From NCBI RefSeq assembly GCF_057098645.1, contig NZ_CM169472.1: a stretch of 64,000 nucleotides of DNA, one strand, 5' to 3'. Below the pieces are notes generated by a model. The model saw nothing but the letters and a program-made list of their open reading frames with translations. It was not told where the DNA came from and did no database searches. A program made the position numbers and the translations under genes. Every line of letters starts with the position of its first letter. Within the stretch, counting starts at the first letter, position 1. This document shows positions 25,238-51,063 of the stretch, one piece after another.

Positions 25238-25314
<77 letters not shown>

Positions 25315-25371
25315 TTTAGTCCCGGCGCTTGAGCTGCGGTGGTAGTAATACCGCGTAACAAGATTTGTAGT

Positions 25372-25448
25372 GGTGGCTATAGCTCAGTTGGTAGAGCCCT
25401 GGATTGTGATTCCAGTTGTCGTGGGTTCGAATCCCATTAGCCACCCCA
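25372..25448 (+). tRNA. hisR: tRNA-His (anticodon GTG)
   Basis: canonical tRNA-His with extra 5' G, ...GATTGTGATTC... anticodon loop, CCA end. Confidence 0.95.
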
Positions 25449-25468
25449 TTATTAGAAGTTGTGACAAT

Positions 25469-25555
25469 GCGAAGGTGGCGGAATTGGTAGACGCGCTAGC
25501 TTCAGGTGTTAGTGTCCTTACGGACGTGGGGGTTCAAGTCCCCCCCCTCGCACCA
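25469..25555 (+). tRNA. leuT: tRNA-Leu (anticodon CAG), long variable arm
   Basis: 87-nt class II tRNA, anticodon loop cttCAGgtg, CCA end. Confidence 0.95.
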
Positions 25556-25597
25556 CGACTTTAAAGAATTGAACTAAAAATTCAAAAAGCAGTATTT

Positions 25598-25674
25598 CGG
25601 CGAGTAGCGCAGCTTGGTAGCGCAACTGGTTTGGGACCAGTGGGTCGGAGGTTCGAATCCTCTCTCGCCGACCA
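25598..25674 (+). tRNA. proM: tRNA-Pro (anticodon TGG)
   Basis: CGGCGAGTAGCGCAGCTTGGTAGCGCAACTGGTTTGGGACCAG... CCA end. Confidence 0.95.
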
Positions 25675-25709: not shown

Positions 25710-25820
25710 CTGTGCATTTCGTCACCCTCCCTTCGCAATAAACGCCCGTAATAACTCATTGCCCCACGGTATGATTTCGCCCTTAACGTATTGAAGGATG
25801 ACTTCAGGCAAGGAGCGACC

Positions 25821-27056
25821 ATGCTGCAACAGGTTCCAACGCGTGCTTTTCATGTGATGGCGAAACCGAGCGGTTCCGATTGTAATCTGAACTGTGACTA
25901 CTGTTTTTATCTCGAAAAACAATCCCTTTACCGCGAAAAGCCAGTCACGCATATGGACGATGACACGCTGGAAGCGTATGTCCGTCACTATATCGCTGCC
26001 AGCGAAACCCAAAACGAAGTGGCTTTTACCTGGCAGGGCGGCGAACCAACGTTACTCGGGCTGGATTTTTACCGCCGTGCCGTGGCTCTACAGGCGAAAT
26101 ATGGTGCTGGCAGGAAGATAAGTAACAGCTTCCAGACTAACGGCGTACTGCTCGATGATGAATGGTGTGCATTTCTGGCAGAAAATCATTTTCTTGTTGG
26201 GTTATCGCTGGATGGTCCGGCTGAGATCCACAATCAATATCGCGTGACCAAAGGTGGCAGACCAACGCATAAGCTGGTGATGCGTGCCCTGACGCTGCTG
26301 CAAAAACATCATGTCGACTATAACGTGCTGGTCTGCGTCAACCGCACCAGCGCGCAGCAACCGTTGCAGGTTTATGATTTTTTGTGCGATGCGGGAGTGG
26401 AATTCATCCAGTTTATTCCGGTGGTCGAGCGCCTGGCTGATGAAACAGCTGCCCGCGATGGACTGAAACTACATGCGCCTGGTGATATTCAGGGGGAACT
26501 GACGGAATGGTCGGTGCGCCCCGATGAATTTGGTGAATTTCTGGTGGCGATATTCGACCACTGGATCAAACGCGACGTCGGCAAGATTTTCGTGATGAAT
26601 ATCGAATGGGCGTTTGCCAATTTTGTCGGTGCGCCGGGTGCGGTTTGCCATCATCAGCCAACCTGTGGGCGCTCGGTGATTGTTGAGCACAACGGCGACG
26701 TTTACGCCTGCGATCACTATGTTTATCCGCAATATCGGTTGGGGAATATGCACCAGCAAACAATTGCAGAAATGGTAGATTCTCCGCAGCAGCAGGCTTT
26801 TGGTGAAGATAAATTTAAGCAGTTACCGGCGCAGTGTCGCAGTTGCAACGTGTTAAAAGCGTGCTGGGGAGGCTGCCCGAAACACCGCTTCATGCTCAAT
26901 GCCAGCGGTAAACCGGGGCTGAATTATTTGTGTGCCGGGTATCAGCGTTATTTCCGCCATCTACCGCCATATCTTAAAGCAATGGCTGATTTGCTGGCGC
27001 ACGGTCGCCCGGCCAGTGACATTATGCAGGCACATTTGCTGGTGGTGAGTAAGTAG
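25821..27056 (+). CDS. aslB: anaerobic sulfatase-maturating enzyme (radical SAM)
   Basis: CNLNCDYCFY radical-SAM cysteine motif plus C-terminal Cys clusters; start ATG 25821 (MLQQVPTRAF...). Confidence 0.9.
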   Translation: MLQQVPTRAFHVMAKPSGSDCNLNCDYCFYLEKQSLYREKPVTHMDDDTLEAYVRHYIAASETQNEVAFTWQGGEPTLLGLDFYRRAVALQAKYGAGRKISNSFQTNGVLLDDEWCAFLAENHFLVGLSLDGPAEIHNQYRVTKGGRPTHKLVMRALTLLQKHHVDYNVLVCVNRTSAQQPLQVYDFLCDAGVEFIQFIPVVERLADETAARDGLKLHAPGDIQGELTEWSVRPDEFGEFLVAIFDHWIKRDVGKIFVMNIEWAFANFVGAPGAVCHHQPTCGRSVIVEHNGDVYACDHYVYPQYRLGNMHQQTIAEMVDSPQQQAFGEDKFKQLPAQCRSCNVLKACWGGCPKHRFMLNASGKPGLNYLCAGYQRYFRHLPPYLKAMADLLAHGRPASDIMQAHLLVVSK

Positions 27057-27082
27057 AAATCGGCGGCCGCCTGCGGTTGATT

Positions 27083-27190
27083 GCCGGATGCGATGCTGAC
27101 CGCATCTTATCCGGCCTACAGAACGCTACAATTTATTGAATTTGCAAGGCTTGTAGGCCGGATAAGGCGTTCACGCCGCATCCGGCAAGG
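27083..27190. repeat. BIME: two REP elements in inverted orientation between convergent aslB and aslA
   Basis: gccggatgcgatgctgaccgcatcttatccggcctaca ... tgtaggccggataaggcgttcacgccgcatccggca. Confidence 0.8.
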
Positions 27191-27222
27191 TCAGTGTGGC
27201 CCGATGTAGCGATATCGCCGGC

Positions 27223-28878
27223 TTAATCAGATTTAATCTGCGCGCGTGGTGGATATTTTTTCAGGATCTCCATATACGCGTGCATTTCGGTCTGTAGCGG
27301 TACACCCATCGGAATATGGCGCACGCCGATAGAGTCGCTCTCCTGCGGATCGGTGTACAGGTTAAACACCGACGATCCGGCTGTTTGCATTACTGTGCCG
27401 GTGAATCCACCCTGATATCCGCTCTGGGTATAAGCGTAAGGTTGCTGAATCAGGACGTGATACTTGAATTCATCCATACGCACAGCAGCGAGTTTACCGT
27501 TGAGGAAGTAGTGCTCGGCCTTACGGTTAGACTGACCATTTGTTCCCAGGAAGAAAGATGTCTGGTCCACACCATCGATAAAGGTGGTTTTCGGCACTAA
27601 ATTCGCCACTTTCGCGCCAGGATGCCCTGCCAGATCCAGCGCGGTAGGGAAGAGATCTGCCAGATCGACAATACCGTCAGATTTACGCGGTTGGATCATC
27701 CCTTTCCAGTACACGAAAGTCGGAACGCGAACGCCGCCTTCCCAGGTCGAACCTTTCGCACCACGGAACGGTGTGCGTCCGTGCGGCGGTACTTCGGCTT
27801 CCGGTCCGTTATCGGAGGTAAAGACAATCAGCGTGTTATCAAGCTGACCGTTTTTTTCCAGTGCTTTATACAGATTAGCGAACACATCGTTCATTTCCAC
27901 CATGCAGTCGCCATACGAGGTGCGTGCCGGAGAGCTACCCGCATATTTGGCGTTCGGGTAGTTATCGAAGTGACAGCCGCGAGTGCCGTAATAGAGGAAG
28001 AAAGGCTTATCACTCTTCGCCATCTTGTCGAGGAACTTAACGCCATATTCCATCCAGCGTTGATCCAGATCTTCCATATATTTCGGCGTAATGTCGGCAA
28101 TGGCCTGTTGTTCGCCGCCGCGCACCGCATGAACGTCATCTTTGCTAAATGGTAATTGCTTGATGTATTCAGAACGGTCCGGACTCAGGGCCACTTCCGG
28201 GTTTACGTGAACGTCGCGCCATTCGGTGTACATATCAGACACCGAGTTAAAGCCACGGAAATCATCAAAGCCAACGTTCTGCGGCTGCGACTCTTTGTTT
28301 TCCCCCATATGCCATTTCCCGATGGCCTGAGTGACGTAGCCCTGATCGTGCAGCAACTGCGGCAGCGTGGTTAACCCTTGCAGCCCGCCCGGTTGCCCAT
28401 ACATTGGCGGCATCAGAATGCCGTGGTGGATGGAGTATTGTCCGGTGAGAATAGTGGCGCGGGTTGGGGAAGAGCTTGGTTGAGAATACGCCGAAGTTAA
28501 AATCAGCCCCTGGCTGGCAACGGCGTCGATATCTGGTGTATGGTTACCCACTGCCACGCCGCCACCGTTAAAACCGACGTCCATCCAGCCCACATCGTCC
28601 AGCAAGAAAACAACCACATTCGGTTTCTTACCGGTTTTTTTCTCAAGTTCTGCCAGCTTCTGCTGGGTTTCTTTATCCTGCGCCGGATGCTGCATTACTG
28701 GCATCATGTTGTCGGCAATAGTGGTCGCCGGTTTAACCAGATACTGGTTTGGGTGATCGTATCCGGCAAAGCCTTTGCGTGCGGTGGCAGTTGACGGGGT
28801 ATCTGCTGCGCTGGCCATGAGAGGAAGAGCGGCGGCGACAGCAACAACAAGACGTTTGGGTGAAAACGAAAATTCCAT
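27223..28878 (-). CDS. aslA: arylsulfatase (sulfatase family, signal peptide)
   Basis: 551-aa ORF with N-terminal signal and the sulfatase CxPxR-type motif region (SSPTRAT). Confidence 0.9.
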
Positions 28879-29302
28879 GCAAAATGCTCCGGTTTCATGT
28901 CATCAAAATGATGACGTAATTAAGCATTGATAATTGAGATCCCTCTCCCTGACAGGATGATTACATAAATAATAGTGATAAAAATAAATTATTTATTTAT
29001 CCAAGAAATGAATTTAAAAATCAGGAGAGCGTTTTCAATCCTACCTCTGGCACAGTTGATATGTAAGGCAGGTTTATTATATCGCGTTGATTATTGATGC
29101 TGTTTTTAGTTTTAACGGCAATTAATATATGTGTTATTAATTGAATGAATTTTATCATTCATAATAAGTATGTGTAGAATCAAGCTCAGGGTAAATATTC
29201 ACTCAGAAAGTTATTACTCAGGAAGCCAAGAGGATTACAGAATTATCTCATAACAAGTGTTAAGGGATGTTATTTCCCGATTCTCTGTGGCATAATAAAC
29301 GA

Positions 29303-29499
29303 GTAGATGCTCATTCCATCTCTTATGTTCGCCTTAGTGCCTCATAAACTCCGGAATGACGCAGAGCCGTTTACGGTGCTTATCGTCCACTGACAGATGT
29401 CGCTTATGCCTCATCAGACACCATGGACACAACGTTGAGTGAAGCACCCACTTGTTGTCATACAGACCTGTTTTAACGCCTGCTCCGTAATAAGAGCAG
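29303..29499 (+). ncRNA. glmZ: small RNA GlmZ (glmS activator) with its intrinsic terminator
   Basis: recognised sequence GTAGATGCTCATTCCATCTCTTATGTTCGCC...; -10 CATAAT at 29291-29296; terminal hairpin ctgctc-cgtaataa-gagcag followed by T7 at 29493-29499. Confidence 0.8.
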
Positions 29500-29556
29500 G
29501 CGTTTTTTTATGTGTCAGGAAGGCCCCGGAGGTGCTTGCCTCCGGGTGAGAAGGAA

Positions 29557-30753
29557 CTACTGTGGTGGGTTGTTCTGCAACGTTAACATCAAACCGTCGC
29601 GACGCATCGCTGCAGCTTCTTCCGGCTTGTGCAGTCTGTCCAGCGCGTCGGCAAGCCATGCGTAATCGTAGGCGTCCGGACGTTGTTTCAGCGCTGCGCG
29701 GAAGGCGAGCGATGCTTCCTGCCATTCTCCGTGCTTCATCAGTGACTGGCCCAGTGTGCTCCACAACAGCGGGCGATCGCCGACGTTTTTGATTTGCTGG
29801 CGCAGCACTTTTTCCAGCTGTTCCGGATTGTTTGTTTTCAGTCGAGGAATCGGCAGCAGTAGGCGATCGTCGTACTGGCGTTTCAGGCCATCGATGATAA
29901 TTTGCTGGGCAGTATCATGATCGTCACATTCAATAAGATGTTCCGCCATTGCCACCTGCAACGCTACCTGATGACGCGTTTTCCGGCTTTGGTTTTTCCA
30001 CCAGTTACGCAAACCTTCGCTACCGTTATCGGCACGCGCCTGATCCATCAGGCCAATCCATGCCTGTTGTTCCAGCATTGCACGATGTTCTTCATCACCA
30101 ACATGGGCTTTCGCCATTGATGGGATAATATCCAGCAGCGAACTCCATGCTCCTGTGCGGATATACGCCTGTTCCGCCAGACGTAATACTTCCGGATGGC
30201 GTGGCGTAACTTCCAGCAGCTTATCCACGCCGTGGCGTGCAGCATGGTTTTCATTACGGGCCAGTTGCAGACGTACACGGGTGATTTCTACCGGAATGGT
30301 GTCATTGCCGGCCAGCTCCGCTGCGCGTTCCAGATGTTGGTTGGCGCGCGCTTCATCACCACGTTGTTGCGCGGCTTCGGCAGCCAGTAGATAGTTCACC
30401 ACCGGTTGTTCAGCGTGATCGGCATTTTTCGCCATCAGCTTTTCAACTTGCTGATAATCGCCTTCCGCCAGTTTCAGCAGCGCCTGTTCGGTCTGCTTAC
30501 GTGCACGGCGACGCTTACGCCCGACAAACCACCCACGGGTGTGCGCGCCAGTGCGGAAGATCCGCCGCAGTAGCCACTCAATGGCAAACAGCACTACCAT
30601 CGCCAGAATCAATATGATCGCCAGGCCCGTGACGCTGGTTTCGATATTGTAGTTGTCGGTCTGGATCAGCACATAACCCTGATGATCGGCAATCATCGGG
30701 CCAACCACGATCCCCGCAATCAGCAACACAAAGAGCAATAACACTTTTAGCAT
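29557..30753 (-). CDS. hemY: HemY protein (TPR-containing inner-membrane protein, heme operon)
   Basis: 398-aa ORF, N-terminal TM segments, position downstream of hemX. Confidence 0.9.
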   Translation of the reverse strand: MLKVLLLFVLLIAGIVVGPMIADHQGYVLIQTDNYNIETSVTGLAIILILAMVVLFAIEWLLRRIFRTGAHTRGWFVGRKRRRARKQTEQALLKLAEGDYQQVEKLMAKNADHAEQPVVNYLLAAEAAQQRGDEARANQHLERAAELAGNDTIPVEITRVRLQLARNENHAARHGVDKLLEVTPRHPEVLRLAEQAYIRTGAWSSLLDIIPSMAKAHVGDEEHRAMLEQQAWIGLMDQARADNGSEGLRNWWKNQSRKTRHQVALQVAMAEHLIECDDHDTAQQIIIDGLKRQYDDRLLLPIPRLKTNNPEQLEKVLRQQIKNVGDRPLLWSTLGQSLMKHGEWQEASLAFRAALKQRPDAYDYAWLADALDRLHKPEEAAAMRRDGLMLTLQNNPPQ

Positions 30754-30755
30754 GG

Positions 30756-31943
30756 TTATTCTCCTTGCGGCGCGGCTGCCGGAGTATCAGCTTGCGGTGC
30801 AGGTGCAGGTGCAGGTTTGGCTTCCGTTGCCCCCGCTGCCGGTTGTGCCAGCAGGTTACGCACGCGAGTCTGCATCAGTTTTTCTAGCATCGTCTGGCTT
30901 TGCAGTGTTTCCGGGAGATCCATCGAAATACTTTGCTGACTTAACTGGTCCACCTCGTCGAGGAATGCTTTGGTCGTTGCATCTTCAGTATCGTAATAAG
31001 CACGAACCCAGGTGGAGACATTCTCCAGTGCCTGGCGGTAAGTCTCTTCCTGATGACGCGGCACAGCTTGTGCGGCGACCAGCAGACGGGAACGAATATT
31101 TTCGCGCAGATAGATATCCTGATTTGGCGCTAACAGCGGTACGGCGGTGTCATCACGACGGCGAATCGTAATGAAGTTGTCCATAAAGTTCTGCCAGCTT
31201 TTTTGCAGATTGATACGCCATTCGCTGATGGAACTGGAAAGCTCTTCACCGTCGGAATCCATCGGCGAACCATCGCTGTCATTATCGGCCAGACGCAGGT
31301 TATCTACCTGATTTGAAAGCTGATTAAGCTTAAGGATGATGCCGTCATAATCCACCTGCGATACTGCAGAAAGGCTGGCGATATCATCGGTAATTGCCCG
31401 ACGAACGGTAATCAGACTTGGGTCATTCATATCCGCCAGGCTGGCGTCTGCACTTTTCAGCAACGCTGCAGCGGTCGTGACGTCCTGATCGCTCCACAGC
31501 TTCCGTCCGGCGAGTTTCACCAGAAAATCGGCCTGAGCCAGCAGCCAGGTTTTAGCATCGCTGCCGGAAATGGTGGCGACCTTTTGTTGGACTTCATCCA
31601 ACTGTTTTGCCAGCGTTTCTTGCTGACGATTCGCCTGTTCAAGCTGTGCAGCTTGTTGCTTGATAATGCCTTCCAGCTCGGCTTTTTGGCTCTCCTGGGC
31701 TTTTTGCAGCGCCGTGAGTTGGCTTGCCAGGGCATCGCTGGTGGCAGTCTGACTGACGGCCTGTTGTTTACCCCAGCCATACAACCCGACGCCTGCTGCC
31801 AGAGCAATGGCGATAGCCACCGCACTGAGAATCAGAGCGGTACTGTTCTTACTCTTCTTTTCTGCAACGACAGGTTGTGGCGTGGTGTCCACGGCCTCCC
31901 TGGTATCTTCAACCACGGCGGAGGTTTTTTCTTGTTCCGTCAT
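30756..31943 (-). CDS. hemX: HemX protein (membrane-anchored, coiled-coil rich)
   Basis: 395-aa ORF with Ala/Gln-rich repeats and one TM segment. Confidence 0.88.
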
Positions 31944-47759: not shown

Positions 47760-48710
47760 ATGCTGAGCGCATTTCAACTGGAAAATAACCGACTGACCCG
47801 GCTGGAAGTCGAAGAGTCACAACCCCTTGTAAATGCAGTATGGATTGATCTTGTCGAACCGGACGACGACGAGCGACTGCGCGTACAATCTGAACTTGGC
47901 CAGAGCCTGGCAACCCGCCCGGAACTGGAAGACATCGAAGCATCGGCACGTTTCTTTGAAGACGACGACGGCCTGCATATTCACTCCTTCTTCTTCTTTG
48001 AAGATGCGGAAGATCACGCCGGTAACTCCACTGTGGCATTTACCATCCGTGATGGTCGTCTGTTTACTCTGCGTGAGCGTGAACTGCCCGCTTTTCGTCT
48101 GTATCGTATGCGTGCCCGTAGCCAGTCGATGGTAGACGGTAACGCCTACGAGTTGCTGCTGGATTTGTTCGAAACCAAAATCGAACAGTTGGCAGATGAA
48201 ATTGAAAATATCTATAGCGACCTGGAGCAATTGAGCCGGGTGATTATGGAAGGGCATCAGGGCGATGAGTACGACGAGGCGCTCTCCACTCTGGCGGAAC
48301 TGGAAGATATCGGCTGGAAAGTTCGCCTGTGTCTGATGGATACCCAGCGCGCTCTCAACTTCCTGGTACGTAAAGCACGCTTACCGGGTGGGCAACTGGA
48401 GCAGGCGCGTGAAATCCTGCGAGATATCGAATCCCTGCTGCCGCATAACGAATCCCTGTTCCAGAAGGTGAACTTCCTGATGCAGGCGGCAATGGGTTTT
48501 ATCAACATCGAGCAGAACCGCATCATCAAAATTTTCTCGGTGGTATCCGTCGTGTTCCTGCCGCCAACGCTGGTTGCTTCCAGCTACGGGATGAACTTTG
48601 AGTTTATGCCAGAACTGAAGTGGAGTTTCGGCTACCCAGGCGCGATTATCTTTATGATCCTCGCGGGCCTGGCACCGTATCTGTACTTTAAGCGGAAGAA
48701 CTGGTTGTAA
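47760..48710 (+). CDS. corA: magnesium/cobalt transport protein CorA
   Basis: 316-aa product [31 protein letters not shown]... ending ...[41 protein letters not shown] (GMN motif). Confidence 0.96.
48574..48710 (+). repeat. direct repeat copy 1: corA 3' terminus (about 94-95% identical to 50277-50413)
   Basis: base-by-base alignment of the two stretches shows the same length, no indels and a handful of substitutions. Confidence 0.85.
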
Positions 48711-48717
48711 TATGAGT

Positions 48718-48745
48718 GCCGGATAAAGCTATTTTTTTATCCGGC
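48718..48745. terminator. hairpin terminator after corA, shared with the convergent islet gene
   Basis: gccggataaa-gctatttt-tttatccggc followed by a T-rich tract. Confidence 0.7.
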
Positions 48746-48751
48746 TTATTT

Positions 48752-49243
48752 CTAAAAATTGTCTTTTTTAAAGTCATGCGGATTGAAAACTCGCTCTATT
48801 TTATTTTCTTGTGTTAATTGATACTCAGTAAAATCGTTAATACCAATATGAGTGTTACGATAAGGGTATTCATTAATAACCATTAAGTAATTTTTCACGA
48901 TGCAATTATCATTGCTCTTAATTGTCGGGAAACAGTAGAGATCTTCATACGGCCCTTCGATATATTTTTTATAGTCAGTGAAGCCATTACCGATATCAAT
49001 GACATACCAGATATGCCAACTACCTTCTGGTAGGGGATGTTGATTTTTAATTTCATTCTGATGCTTCAGATACCAATTTATTTTATCGCTGTCAGTCCAT
49101 GGCAGATGATCAACGACCAGAAAGACTGAATTGCCAGCATCAGAGTATGTATACAAAATCTGTACAGGACGCAATGTCCATAAATTATAGATACAGCATA
49201 GAAGAAATAAACATAATATAATTTTCTGGCGTTTGCTTTTCAT
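48752..49243 (-). CDS. hypothetical membrane-anchored protein (N-terminal TM helix, extracytoplasmic domain); candidate partner of the upstream gene
   Basis: 163-aa ORF MKSKRQKIILCLFLLCCIYNLWTL...; very AT-rich codon usage; starts 27 bp after the upstream gene's stop. Confidence 0.6.
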   Translation of the reverse strand: MKSKRQKIILCLFLLCCIYNLWTLRPVQILYTYSDAGNSVFLVVDHLPWTDSDKINWYLKHQNEIKNQHPLPEGSWHIWYVIDIGNGFTDYKKYIEGPYEDLYCFPTIKSNDNCIVKNYLMVINEYPYRNTHIGINDFTEYQLTQENKIERVFNPHDFKKDNF

Positions 49244-49270
49244 AGATAATTTTCGATTCTTTCGATAGTG

Positions 49271-50084
49271 TTAAAATTGGTGAAAAAAGGTTTGAAAGCA
49301 AAGCCTTTATGCCGTTGTAAAAAGAACCATATGCGAAAAAATCTATATTTGCTGTAAGTCTTGTTTTTGATATCAGTTACATCAAGACCGAAGTGGTCCT
49401 GTGCTACAAAATGAATTGTCGCACTCCACCCTATAGCGTATTTTTGAAAGCTTAAAAGAGATATTTTTTGAGCTGAAATATCATGAACACTGATTCCTAA
49501 GCCATTAAAACTGTCCTCGAAGTCATTAAATTTATTTAGTCTTGATGAAAGTAATTTGGTTTTAATGCTTTGCAGGATAAGAGGTTGGTATCCTGTCGAG
49601 GGAGTTGAATTAATGCCATTTTCGATACATTCTTTGATTATTCGTATTGGACTATTATAACCATATTTATTTTTTCATGAAAAGATAAATTTAATTGTTG
49701 GCTATGAAAATTGCTGCCATTTCCATATCTAAAATGTTCAATCAGATCTTCGATAAGTGTTTTATATTGTCCAAAAAAGGAAAAAATTTTTGCTAGTTCT
49801 TTCATTTCTGCAAATAAAATATCAGTGCATTCACGTTGTGATATTTTTGTTCCGGAACTTGAGGCACTAAAAGCAACATTAATAGAACCTGGGCCAGGGA
49901 AATGGTATTTAATAAGTCTGTAAGGATCAACTTTTGCTGAGATATCGCTTAGGCCGAGTGAGAGAAAATCTTGTTCTACCATATCACCATATTGCATATC
50001 ATCAGCAGAATAATCATCAAATAAACTAATAGTTTCGAAAAGTGTACAGGGAATATTAATTGATGGAAGTAATGTGTTATTCAT
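49271..50084 (-). pseudogene. hypothetical protein of about 270 aa interrupted by a -1 frameshift at an A6 run (148-aa N-terminal ORF plus about 125 in-frame codons lacking any start codon)
   Basis: ORF 49638-50084 ends ...SFHEKINMVIIVQYE*; the next frame stays open from the overlap catgAAAAAAtaaatatgg down to the stop at 49271 and contains no ATG/GTG/TTG. Confidence 0.6.
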
Positions 50085-50209
50085 TTACATTTTCCTTGGT
50101 TATATTTAAGCTCAATATCAATTTGAGAACAAATGCTAGGGTAAAAAAAATTTAAAAAAGAAGTACACTTCACATTTTTATTACATTCCGAAGGGAATCT
50201 CGTTATTGA

Positions 50210-50413
50210 TTGGTTTTGCCCATTGTTAATAACAATATGTTGAATTTACCGATTAGGAAACTTTTTCCTACGCGGATTGCCTCCAGCTATGGGATGAACT
50301 TTGAGTTTATGCCAGAACTGAAGTGGAGTTTCGGCTACCCTGGCGCGATTATCTTTATGATCCTCGCGGGCCTGGCACCGCATCTGTACTTTAAGCGTAA
50401 GAACTGGCTGTAA
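50210..50413 (+). pseudogene. displaced corA 3' fragment (last ~46 codons, [11 protein letters not shown] end); not an independent gene
   Basis: 67-aa ORF whose C-terminal 45 residues equal the CorA C-terminus with one Y to H change; no corA N-terminal region upstream. Confidence 0.8.
50277..50413 (+). repeat. direct repeat copy 2 of the corA 3' terminus
   Basis: offset of exactly 1703 bp from copy 1. Confidence 0.85.
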
Positions 50414-50419
50414 CTATAC

Positions 50420-50462
50420 GATGTCGCTGTGAGTAAGTTAGTGTGCTGACAGCGACATTTTA
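50420..50462. terminator. hairpin terminator after the displaced corA 3' end, shared with the convergent DUF805 gene
   Basis: gatgtcgctgt...acagcgacat inverted repeat followed by tttag. Confidence 0.6.
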
Positions 50463-50824
50463 GCCGAGGGAATCGCAGATAACATAATTGTTGTGAATAA
50501 TATCCATGCCACGTTGAGTTGGACGCTTAATGACTCACATCTCACCCCTTCAATTGCTGCAGAGATAATAGAAAAAAGTGTTAAACCCAATGAAATCAAT
50601 ACAAAGTAGATTGCCTTACATCCAGTATCTCTTATTCTTTTTGCTCCAATATTGATATTTACATAGGTATTATTAATAACCAGAATAAAACTCAAAGCCA
50701 GGTTGATATCATTCAAAGTTATTAATATTGACCATGATGTTAATGTATAGATTATGAACTGAAAGCGTGATAAACGCTCAAGCCTGGATGGGTAGAATAT
50801 ATTTCTGATGGATGATTTGAACAT
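50438..50824 (-). CDS. DUF805-family small inner-membrane protein (yigF-like position)
   Basis: 128-aa ORF with 3-4 TM segments and a KRIRDTG motif resembling the DUF805 RRxHD signature; AT-rich. Confidence 0.6.
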   Translation of the reverse strand: MFKSSIRNIFYPSRLERLSRFQFIIYTLTSWSILITLNDINLALSFILVINNTYVNINIGAKRIRDTGCKAIYFVLISLGLTLFSIISAAIEGVRCESLSVQLNVAWILFTTIMLSAIPSAKMSLSAH

Positions 50825-50883
50825 TTTTTACATTGTTTTATATATATAATTGTTTTGAATATATATTACCTGAATTATGTGGT

Positions 50884-50901
50884 TTGCATATATATATGCA
50901 A
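50884..50901. promoter_or_regulatory. perfect 18-bp palindrome in the AT-rich divergent promoter region
   Basis: TTGCATATATATATGCAA reads identically on both strands. Confidence 0.5.
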
Positions 50902-51063
50902 TATAGCAGTCTTTGCATTGATAACTACACAGTAGTAATTTAGAGTGTGTAAGTTTTTATTGATAGGGTATATTTTAATTAAATATAATTGGAATGTATT
51001 TTTATTCTATAAACAATATATTGGGTGAATGGATTCTATATGGGAAATGGTAACTTTTGGTAG

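Follow-up and report, generated by a model that had tools for sequence, protein, structure and literature searches.

The AT-rich spacer between aslA and glmZ of Escherichia coli: a control region that probably belongs to an aslB-aslA module inserted upstream of a sigma70-dependent sRNA gene

The interval between aslA and hemY in Escherichia coli is probably best read as the known small RNA gene glmZ together with a 424-bp divergent control region, which would serve mostly aslA and would represent the right-hand end of an inserted aslB-aslA module. The glmZ gene, its promoter, the dispensability of the DNA upstream of that promoter, and the in vitro binding of H-NS and RNA polymerase (RNAP) to the spacer are all already known, and the locus is an ordinary one. 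What the present comparison adds is a structural reason for the escape of E. coli glmZ from GlrR and sigma54, in which the enhancer would have been physically replaced by the aslB-aslA module.

The window analyzed here is one strand of a 64,000-nucleotide stretch of contig NZ_CM169472.1 (assembly GCF_057098645.1), in which the ORF list and the annotation place the aslA-hemY spacer at 28879..29556. Its left side begins with the tRNA cluster argX-hisR-leuT-proM (25238..25674, plus strand), identified by ARAGORN, and continues with aslB (25791..27056, plus strand), an anaerobic sulfatase maturase assigned to the inserted module and known from the ORF list and from the RefSeq annotation of an identical O145 record. 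Between the convergent aslB and aslA lie REP/BIME-type palindromic repeats (27061..27223, both strands), recognized through sub-threshold Rfam matches to naRNA4/ES036, and these are followed by aslA itself (27223..28878, minus strand), a putative arylsulfatase of 551 aa which is supported by its ORF, by the annotation, and by a Pfam Sulfatase domain (PF00884, E 1.3e-71). The estimate given in an earlier note on this DNA, of a 680-bp spacer with about 420 bp unassigned, proved accurate, given that the spacer has 678 bp, of which 424 bp (28879..29302) carry no annotated feature in either the PGAP records or the curated MG1655 record. The same holds in MG1655 (NC_000913.3), where the counterpart of these 424 bp extends over 3986008-3986431, from aslA (b3801) to glmZ (b4456). 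The 424-bp sequence is 100% identical to that of E. coli O145 RM9872 and 97.6% identical to that of K-12.

The 3' part of the spacer is GlmZ, as had been recognized by sequence in the earlier note. A covariance-model search matched Rfam RF00083 (GlmZ_SraJ) at 29303..29509 on the plus strand, over 207 nt, scoring 218.4 bits (gathering score, 60; E 2.4e-57), and the model was covered end to end (positions 1-214 of 214). Over these 207 nt the gene shows 100% identity to K-12 glmZ (SraJ/RyiA), and its divergence across the eight Escherichia sequences compared is only 0-1.4%. In comparison with K-12 GlmZ (b4456), the sequence, the position, the sigma70 promoter, and the terminator are all the same, and there is no substantive difference. 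The RefSeq/PGAP records leave the gene unannotated, and the MG1655 record gives it 172 nt, versus a primary transcript of 207 nt. The -10 CATAAT and the terminal hairpin with T7 described previously were both seen, at 29291-29296 and at 29475-29509, respectively; the terminator consists of an 11-bp stem (29475-29504) and then the T7 tract (29503-29509), and a terminator scan detected it as well. The stop codon of hemY (29557..30753, minus strand; ORF and annotation) is found 47 bp 3' of this terminator, and the convergence with the end of the hemCDXY operon is preserved, an arrangement found likewise in the Enterobacteriaceae (Göpel 2011, PMC3045617). Judging from the literature on the identical K-12 sRNA, the GlmZ of the window would activate glmS by base pairing and would undergo RapZ-dependent processing. 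An FNR ChIP peak reported within glmZ, at 3984609 of MG1655 (U00096.2), was called by one of four peak callers, over a weak motif, and was discounted as probably artefactual, owing to high expression.

The core promoter of glmZ (29263..29302, plus strand, -40..-1) is delimited by its sequence, by the mutants of Göpel 2011, and by its conservation in Escherichia. It has a weak -35-like element, ATGTTA (29267-29272), and a TG at 29288-29289 which makes an extended -10 (TGgCATAAT, -15..-7) in front of the +1 G at 29303, and the segment from -40 to +1 is identical to that of K-12. Mutation of the -35 or the -10 abolishes activity, whereas 5' deletions show that the DNA upstream of -40 is dispensable for the promoter; in addition, the -424..+32 fragment of E. 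coli glmZ was not bound by GlrR in EMSA, and a glmZ'-lacZ fusion was indifferent to the deletion of glrR or rpoN, which led the authors to conclude that E. coli glmZ is driven by a single constitutive sigma70 promoter (Göpel 2011, PMC3045617). This literature shows that only the last ~40 bp of the 424 serve glmZ, as a sigma70 promoter which is constitutive and combines an extended -10 with a weak -35. The remaining ~380 bp would be made up of the 5' leader, the promoter, and a silencing region of aslA. A natural variant agrees with this boundary: in strain PSS-16, an IS1A-associated deletion has taken out the 5' half of aslA and has run through the spacer to about -50 of glmZ, an endpoint which fits the published -40 limit.

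The description of the upstream part as extremely AT-rich was borne out by measurement, given that the 424 bp have a G+C of 0.316, against a mean of 0.514 in the window, and that a G+C this low occurs in only 1.5% of the windows of 424 bp across the 64 kb. The frequency of TpA is 0.101, versus 0.045 for the window, and runs such as aaataaattatttatttat (28982-29000) are present, so that the spacer is, over its 424 bp, an AT-rich and TpA-elevated tract of the kind that marks H-NS-bound silenced regions, with a length sufficient for filaments to form. On the other hand, scans of the spacer for the consensus sequences of H-NS, IHF, Fis, FNR, CRP, and Fur returned nothing above chance; the high-affinity H-NS motif TCGATAAATT has one match, with two mismatches, against 1.23 +/- 1.10 in shuffled sequences, which is no enrichment. 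The backing for the earlier proposal of nucleoid-protein-bound regulatory DNA comes from the literature, specifically from in vitro H-NS SELEX, in which the aslA/glmZ spacer, one of the divergent spacers bound by the RpoD holoenzyme in vitro (Table 1), is marked "HNS" for its overlap with one of 987 genomic-SELEX H-NS sites (Shimada 2014, PMC3946193). The same study gives the best-matching hexamers, predicted from sequence, as TTAACA-18-TGTAAT towards aslA and TTGAGA-17-GATGAT rightwards (Shimada 2014, PMC3946193). The supplement of Higashi 2016 has entries for aslB and hemY but none for aslA.

The promoter of aslA is likely to be within the spacer, and the AT-rich core (28939..29158), distinguished by its composition, its conservation profile, and its promoter-like sites, and containing A/T tracts and short palindromes, is presumed to hold this promoter together with H-NS-binding DNA. 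Three candidates for the promoter were considered, namely TTAACA-18-TGTAAT (29264-29235), TTGAAA-16-TAAATT (29038-29011), and TATAAT (29081-29076), and as each is degenerate in some close relatives, none was assigned. The promoter-like hexamers of the spacer are poorly conserved even between O145 and K-12 or B2. RNAP-sigma70 and H-NS would both bind this AT-rich, TpA-rich DNA, as they do in vitro in the published work, and H-NS may polymerize on the AT-rich core and, in ordinary conditions, almost completely silence one or more promoters of aslA. The spacer thus resembles the AT-rich, H-NS-bound promoters of the xenogeneic-silencing type found at E. coli genes that are accessory or little expressed, such as the HNS-marked spacers of Shimada 2014, in its ~68% A+T over ~400 bp, in its doubled TpA and many promoter-like hexamers, in its binding of RNAP-sigma70 and H-NS in vitro, and in adjoining a gene (aslA) with no known condition of expression. 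It differs from them in that the flanking aslA and aslB are of ordinary G+C (0.49-0.59), with the AT-richness confined to the control region, and in that one edge of the tract bears the strong constitutive promoter of an sRNA, glmZ.

The internal anatomy of the spacer was examined through a conservation profile of eight Escherichia sequences, with the O145 sequence as the reference. The best-conserved part is the aslA-proximal leader block (28879..28938, minus strand), defined by invariant runs at 28879-28899 and 28915-28938, beside the aslA start codon, the longest of which has 24 bp (permutation P=0.004). The Shine-Dalgarno sequence (SD) of aslA, GGAG, appears here as the plus-strand CTCC at 28887-28890, and between the two runs there is a palindrome, GTCATCA-AAA-TGATGAC (28899-28915), which contains all of the variation found in that segment and keeps its symmetry while differing in sequence among K-12-type strains, E. 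albertii (GACATCAA/TTGATGTC), and strain 702/18 (CGTCAA/TTGACG). Outside it, AATGCT (28883-28888) and AGCATT (28923-28928) are complementary and would be able to cover the SD of aslA in the RNA. The helix has one compensatory pair among five distinct sequences, a score reached by 103 of 500 shuffles, so that a leader hairpin with an SD-occluding stem, through which the translation of aslA might be damped, is suggestive only, and is offered as a lead rather than as a finding.

Further from aslA, two blocks within the AT-rich core (29020-29050 and 29059-29112) show moderate conservation that extends to E. albertii and a divergent Escherichia lineage, and the ~65 bp that immediately precede glmZ are conserved as well. 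Between these lies a hypervariable zone (29159..29235) in which 21-25 of 30 columns are variable, and which appears to be unconstrained. It contains the direct repeats ACTCAGAAAG and ACTCAGGAAG (29201-29210 and 29216-29225), and strain 702/18 has lost 15 bp from the zone by slippage between the ACTCAGGAAG repeats. Apart from the ACTCAG(A/G)AAG pair, a search for repeats in the spacer found only short AT-rich families at the level of chance.

The distribution of the spacer is almost universal in the species, as it was found in 5,423 of 5,426 complete E. coli genomes, essentially once in each, and at a coverage of at least 80% in 5,406 of them, with identities from about 90% to 100%. The body of aslA, by contrast with the spacer, is present in 3,697 of the 5,426, and the ~32% of genomes without it (which include HS, an O26 strain, and LY180) have kept a 138-bp 5' stub of the gene and the whole of the spacer, which indicates that the persistence of the spacer is independent of aslA, although the absence may derive from a single inherited deletion.

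These same data permit a second reading, namely that the spacer, besides the ~40-bp glmZ promoter and the ribosome-binding region of aslA, is largely functionless filler, unconstrained and AT-rich by mutational bias, with the binding of H-NS and RNAP being incidental. The rates of divergence lend it some weight, since, relative to O145, the spacer differs by 7% in B2-type E. coli, near the rate at third codon positions (15% in aslA and 9.5% in hemY), and by 19-23% in other Escherichia, where third codon positions differ by 22-31%; the rate in the middle of the spacer is from about half to equal that of third codon positions. The hypervariable zone and its slippage deletion are also what filler would be expected to produce, as are the alignment with Pseudocitrobacter in patches only, the failure to align with Kluyvera or Superficieibacter, the natural IS1 deletion of most of the spacer, its passive retention in the aslA-deleted genomes, and the use of the aslA site, or of the DNA between aslA and glmZ, by several laboratories as a neutral place for the integration of reporters. 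The IS1 deletion and the use for integration, as signs that disruption is tolerated, speak for the favored reading too. However, conservation is significantly non-uniform, both in the longest invariant run and in the 90-bp window with the fewest variable sites (P=0.007), the two moderately conserved blocks are kept in E. albertii and the divergent Escherichia, and aslA requires a promoter somewhere in this DNA. In addition, the aslA-linked spacers of four genera all have a G+C of 28-34% despite the turnover of their sequences, which suggests that the composition itself is maintained. Given this, filler is an unlikely account of the spacer as a whole, although it retains an appreciable share of the probability.

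A good deal less probable is an additional, unannotated product, whether an sRNA, a 5'-extended isoform of GlmZ, an antisense of the aslA leader, or a small protein. Promoter-like hexamer pairs are in excess on the two strands of the spacer (6, against 2.1 +/- 1.2 expected), with sites on the plus strand at 28934-28961, 28949-28976, and 29152-29180, to which the published rightward candidate may be added, but AT-rich DNA yields such matches by composition alone. The spacer also has folding z-scores of -2.9 and -2.5 relative to shuffled sequences, which are alike on the two strands, and a strand-symmetric signal of this type points to scattered DNA palindromes rather than to an RNA gene. A search of Rfam over 27000-31500 (E<=1) found no family in the spacer other than GlmZ, and the only intrinsic terminator on either strand from aslA to hemY is that of glmZ, with none inside the spacer. 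The earlier statement that the region has no ORF needs qualification, given that mechanical ORFs of 40 aa (28975..29097, plus strand) and 45 aa (29021..29158, minus strand) do exist; it stands in that neither is conserved as an ORF. The first is interrupted by in-frame stop codons in E. albertii, the divergent Escherichia, and two strains of E. coli, and of the six E. coli sequences compared, four have lost the ATG of the second, so that both were rejected as genes, and the variable sites by codon position number 9/9/15 and 11/17/11, respectively. An independent sRNA gene is thus not supported, as promoter and terminator together, strand-specific structure, and a known family were not found, and neither is a small protein gene, for which a preserved ORF that varies mainly at third codon positions would be expected. 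The suggestion of an additional small transcript, made in the earlier note, is not upheld by this combination of no Rfam match, no terminator of its own, broken ORFs, and symmetric folding, nor does the curated MG1655 record annotate any product there.

The reading of the spacer as the end of an aslB-aslA module is based on the comparison of the interval between proM and glmZ across genera. The scan used a conserved pattern of the GlmZ core, with one genome per species, and gave at least 120 loci, of which ~95 of those listed have a real glmZ. In most of the loci listed, the 40 bp before glmZ contain TGGCAC-N6-TGCAATAAT, a sigma54 promoter with which a sigma70 -10 overlaps, with one to three TGTC-N10-GACA GlrR sites farther upstream and an upstream G+C of 0.40-0.50, in agreement with the GlrR sites at about -150, -214, and -250 and the sigma54 promoter which precede glmZ in most Enterobacterales (Göpel 2011, PMC3045617, and the present comparison). 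The distance from proM to glmZ is 164-332 bp in 12 genera, usually with TGTC-N10-GACA and TGGCAC-N6-TGCA, and from the end of proM to the +1 of glmZ it is 297-332 bp in Salmonella, Citrobacter, Enterobacter, Kosakonia, Atlantibacter, and Mangrovibacter. In Escherichia and Superficieibacter, by comparison, it is ~3.6 kb (3,628 bp in the window), and the interval is occupied in the window by aslB, the REP repeats, aslA, and the AT-rich spacer, a module of ~3.55 kb.

Both ends of the module can be placed. On the left, the 38 bp after proM, which include the terminator and reach to about 25712, are common to all of the genera, and E. coli diverges beyond them. On the right, the agreement of E. coli with 37 relatives of the sigma54 type is 0.69 at -10..-1, 0.54 at -20..-11, and 0.20 at -30..-21, so that it is low exactly where the sigma54-type consensus is strongest, and it is near background farther upstream; the similarity is thus limited to the segment from -1 to about -18/-20. 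Among the loci listed, aslA is found directly upstream of glmZ in E. coli, E. albertii, the divergent Escherichia, Superficieibacter, Kluyvera, and Pseudocitrobacter, and in all six the upstream DNA has a G+C of 28-34% and lacks GlrR sites. The sigma54 motif is missing from all six of these aslA-adjacent loci, whereas 74 of the 81 other loci listed have it (Fisher p=3e-6, uncorrected for phylogeny). Raoultella, Pluralibacter, and some Citrobacter have likewise lost the sigma54 element, without any involvement of aslA. A recent horizontal transfer of aslA is not supported, given that the divergence of AslA between genera is similar to that of HemY, and it follows from this similarity that the event which brought in the module was not recent.

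When set beside the sigma54/GlrR(QseF)/IHF-dependent promoters of glmY and glmZ in Salmonella, Yersinia, Citrobacter, and Enterobacter (Göpel 2011), the E. coli locus shares the sRNA, its position next to hemY, and the segment from -10 to +1 (TGTGCAATAATATACGG versus TGTGGCATAATAAACGA), but it has neither the -24 element nor the GlrR and IHF sites, and its spacer, which GlrR does not bind and glmZ expression does not need, stands in place of a segment of ~300 bp. Specifically, the -24/-12 element TGGCAC-N5/6-TGCA is absent before E. coli glmZ, there is no TGTC-N10-GACA in the 424-bp spacer, and the IHF consensus WATCARNNNNTTR occurs on neither of its strands. That the spacer might nevertheless be the decayed remnant, still in place, of the ancestral GlrR/IHF/sigma54 enhancer, perhaps still modulating glmZ, as could be imagined from the prevalence of that enhancer in Enterobacterales and from the homology between the -10 region in E. 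coli and the -12/-10 portion of sigma54-type promoters, is highly improbable, given the missing GlrR, IHF, and -24 elements, the lack of GlrR binding and the unchanged activity of the glmZ promoter when the spacer is removed (Göpel 2011, PMC3045617), the similarity at background upstream of about -20, and the occupation of the ancestral segment's place, from proM to glmZ, by 3.6 kb of different DNA.

As the right-hand end of the module, the spacer belongs with aslA rather than with a decayed enhancer of glmZ, and the filling of the enhancer position by the 3.55-kb module accounts for the sole dependence of glmZ on sigma70 in E. coli. The existence of two classes of glmZ promoter that cannot be aligned, and of a "variable" upstream region, had already been noted (Göpel 2011, PMC3045617); the searched portions of the text of that paper contain no link of these classes to aslA. 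The scenario slightly favored here is a rewiring of regulation by insertion, in which the arrival of the aslB-aslA module between proM and glmZ would have displaced the GlrR/IHF/sigma54 enhancer and provided a new -35 region, turning glmZ from a gene controlled by QseE/QseF (GlrK/GlrR) into a constitutive sigma70 gene in Escherichia, Kluyvera, Pseudocitrobacter, and Superficieibacter. Insertion, and not gradual decay, would then have been what ended the sigma54 control of glmZ in the lineages that bear aslA.

Finally, the reading has two consequences. For those who use the "neutral" integration site, it is relevant that this site is probably in H-NS-bound DNA, beside the strong promoter of an sRNA. 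For the family, the replacement of the enhancer by the aslB-aslA module has a bearing on the difference in the wiring of the GlmY/GlmZ cascade between E. coli and Salmonella or Yersinia.

The body of aslA is missing from 1,729 of the 5,426 complete E. coli genomes (~32%), in which a 138-bp 5' stub of the gene and the whole AT-rich spacer (28879-29302) have been kept, as in E. coli S19-141, where the stub occupies positions 1863-2000 of the compared locus (L128), and in HS, O26 RM8426, and LY180. Given that the end point is common to the genomes without the aslA body, a single inherited deletion is suggested. E. coli PSS-16 (locus L124, 5288-6000) carries an IS1A-associated deletion of the 5' half of aslA and the spacer, which stops ~50 bp upstream of the glmZ +1 and leaves the glmZ core promoter intact.

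The hypervariable zone of the spacer (29159-29235) contains ACTCAGAAAG and ACTCAGGAAG as direct repeats at a distance of 15 bp (29201-29225), and exactly one 15-bp repeat unit is gone at this site in strain 702/18 (locus L126), a footprint of replication slippage.

The genes aslB and aslA converge on an interval (27061-27223) filled with REP/BIME-type palindromes, where the Rfam search gave hits for naRNA4 (CssrE) and ES036 on the two strands, all of them below threshold. On the other side of glmZ, an extra segment of ~590 bp separates its terminator from hemY in some strains, such as the B2-type E. coli uk_P46212 (locus L125, 2630-3220; the equivalent site in the window follows ~29512), where it encodes a 196-aa "hypothetical protein" for which the Pfam search gave no match. 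AT content in the window is highest along the ~2.3-kb stretch at 48678-51021 (G+C 0.26-0.33), which comes after a 321-aa ORF on the plus strand and contains three small ORFs on the minus strand (163, 148, and 128 aa).

At the glmZ promoter, two TGTTA pentamers are found 10 bp apart, at -45 and -35 (29258-29272, GTGTTAAGGGATGTTAT), the second of which is itself the -35 element; the pair presumably resembles ArcA-type direct-repeat half-sites. An FNR ChIP peak labelled "5' of glmZ/hemY" has been tabulated at U00096.2 coordinate 3984609 (Myers 2013), which in MG1655 corresponds to window position ~29457, so that the peak centre falls inside glmZ. One algorithm out of four called this peak, and its FNR motif score is weak (-5.16; Myers 2013), so high expression is the probable source of an artefact here.

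Finally, the locus comparison showed that glmZ has lost its upstream sigma54 -24 element in several lineages that have no aslA insertion, namely Raoultella (L097), Pluralibacter (L016 and L078), the Citrobacter youngae-type loci L039 and L047, and the loci L057 and L118, with the proM-glmZ distance shortened to 189 and 164 bp in some such lineages. Given these repeated losses in aslA-free lineages, the loss of GlrR/sigma54 control of glmZ is, on this comparison, recurrent.
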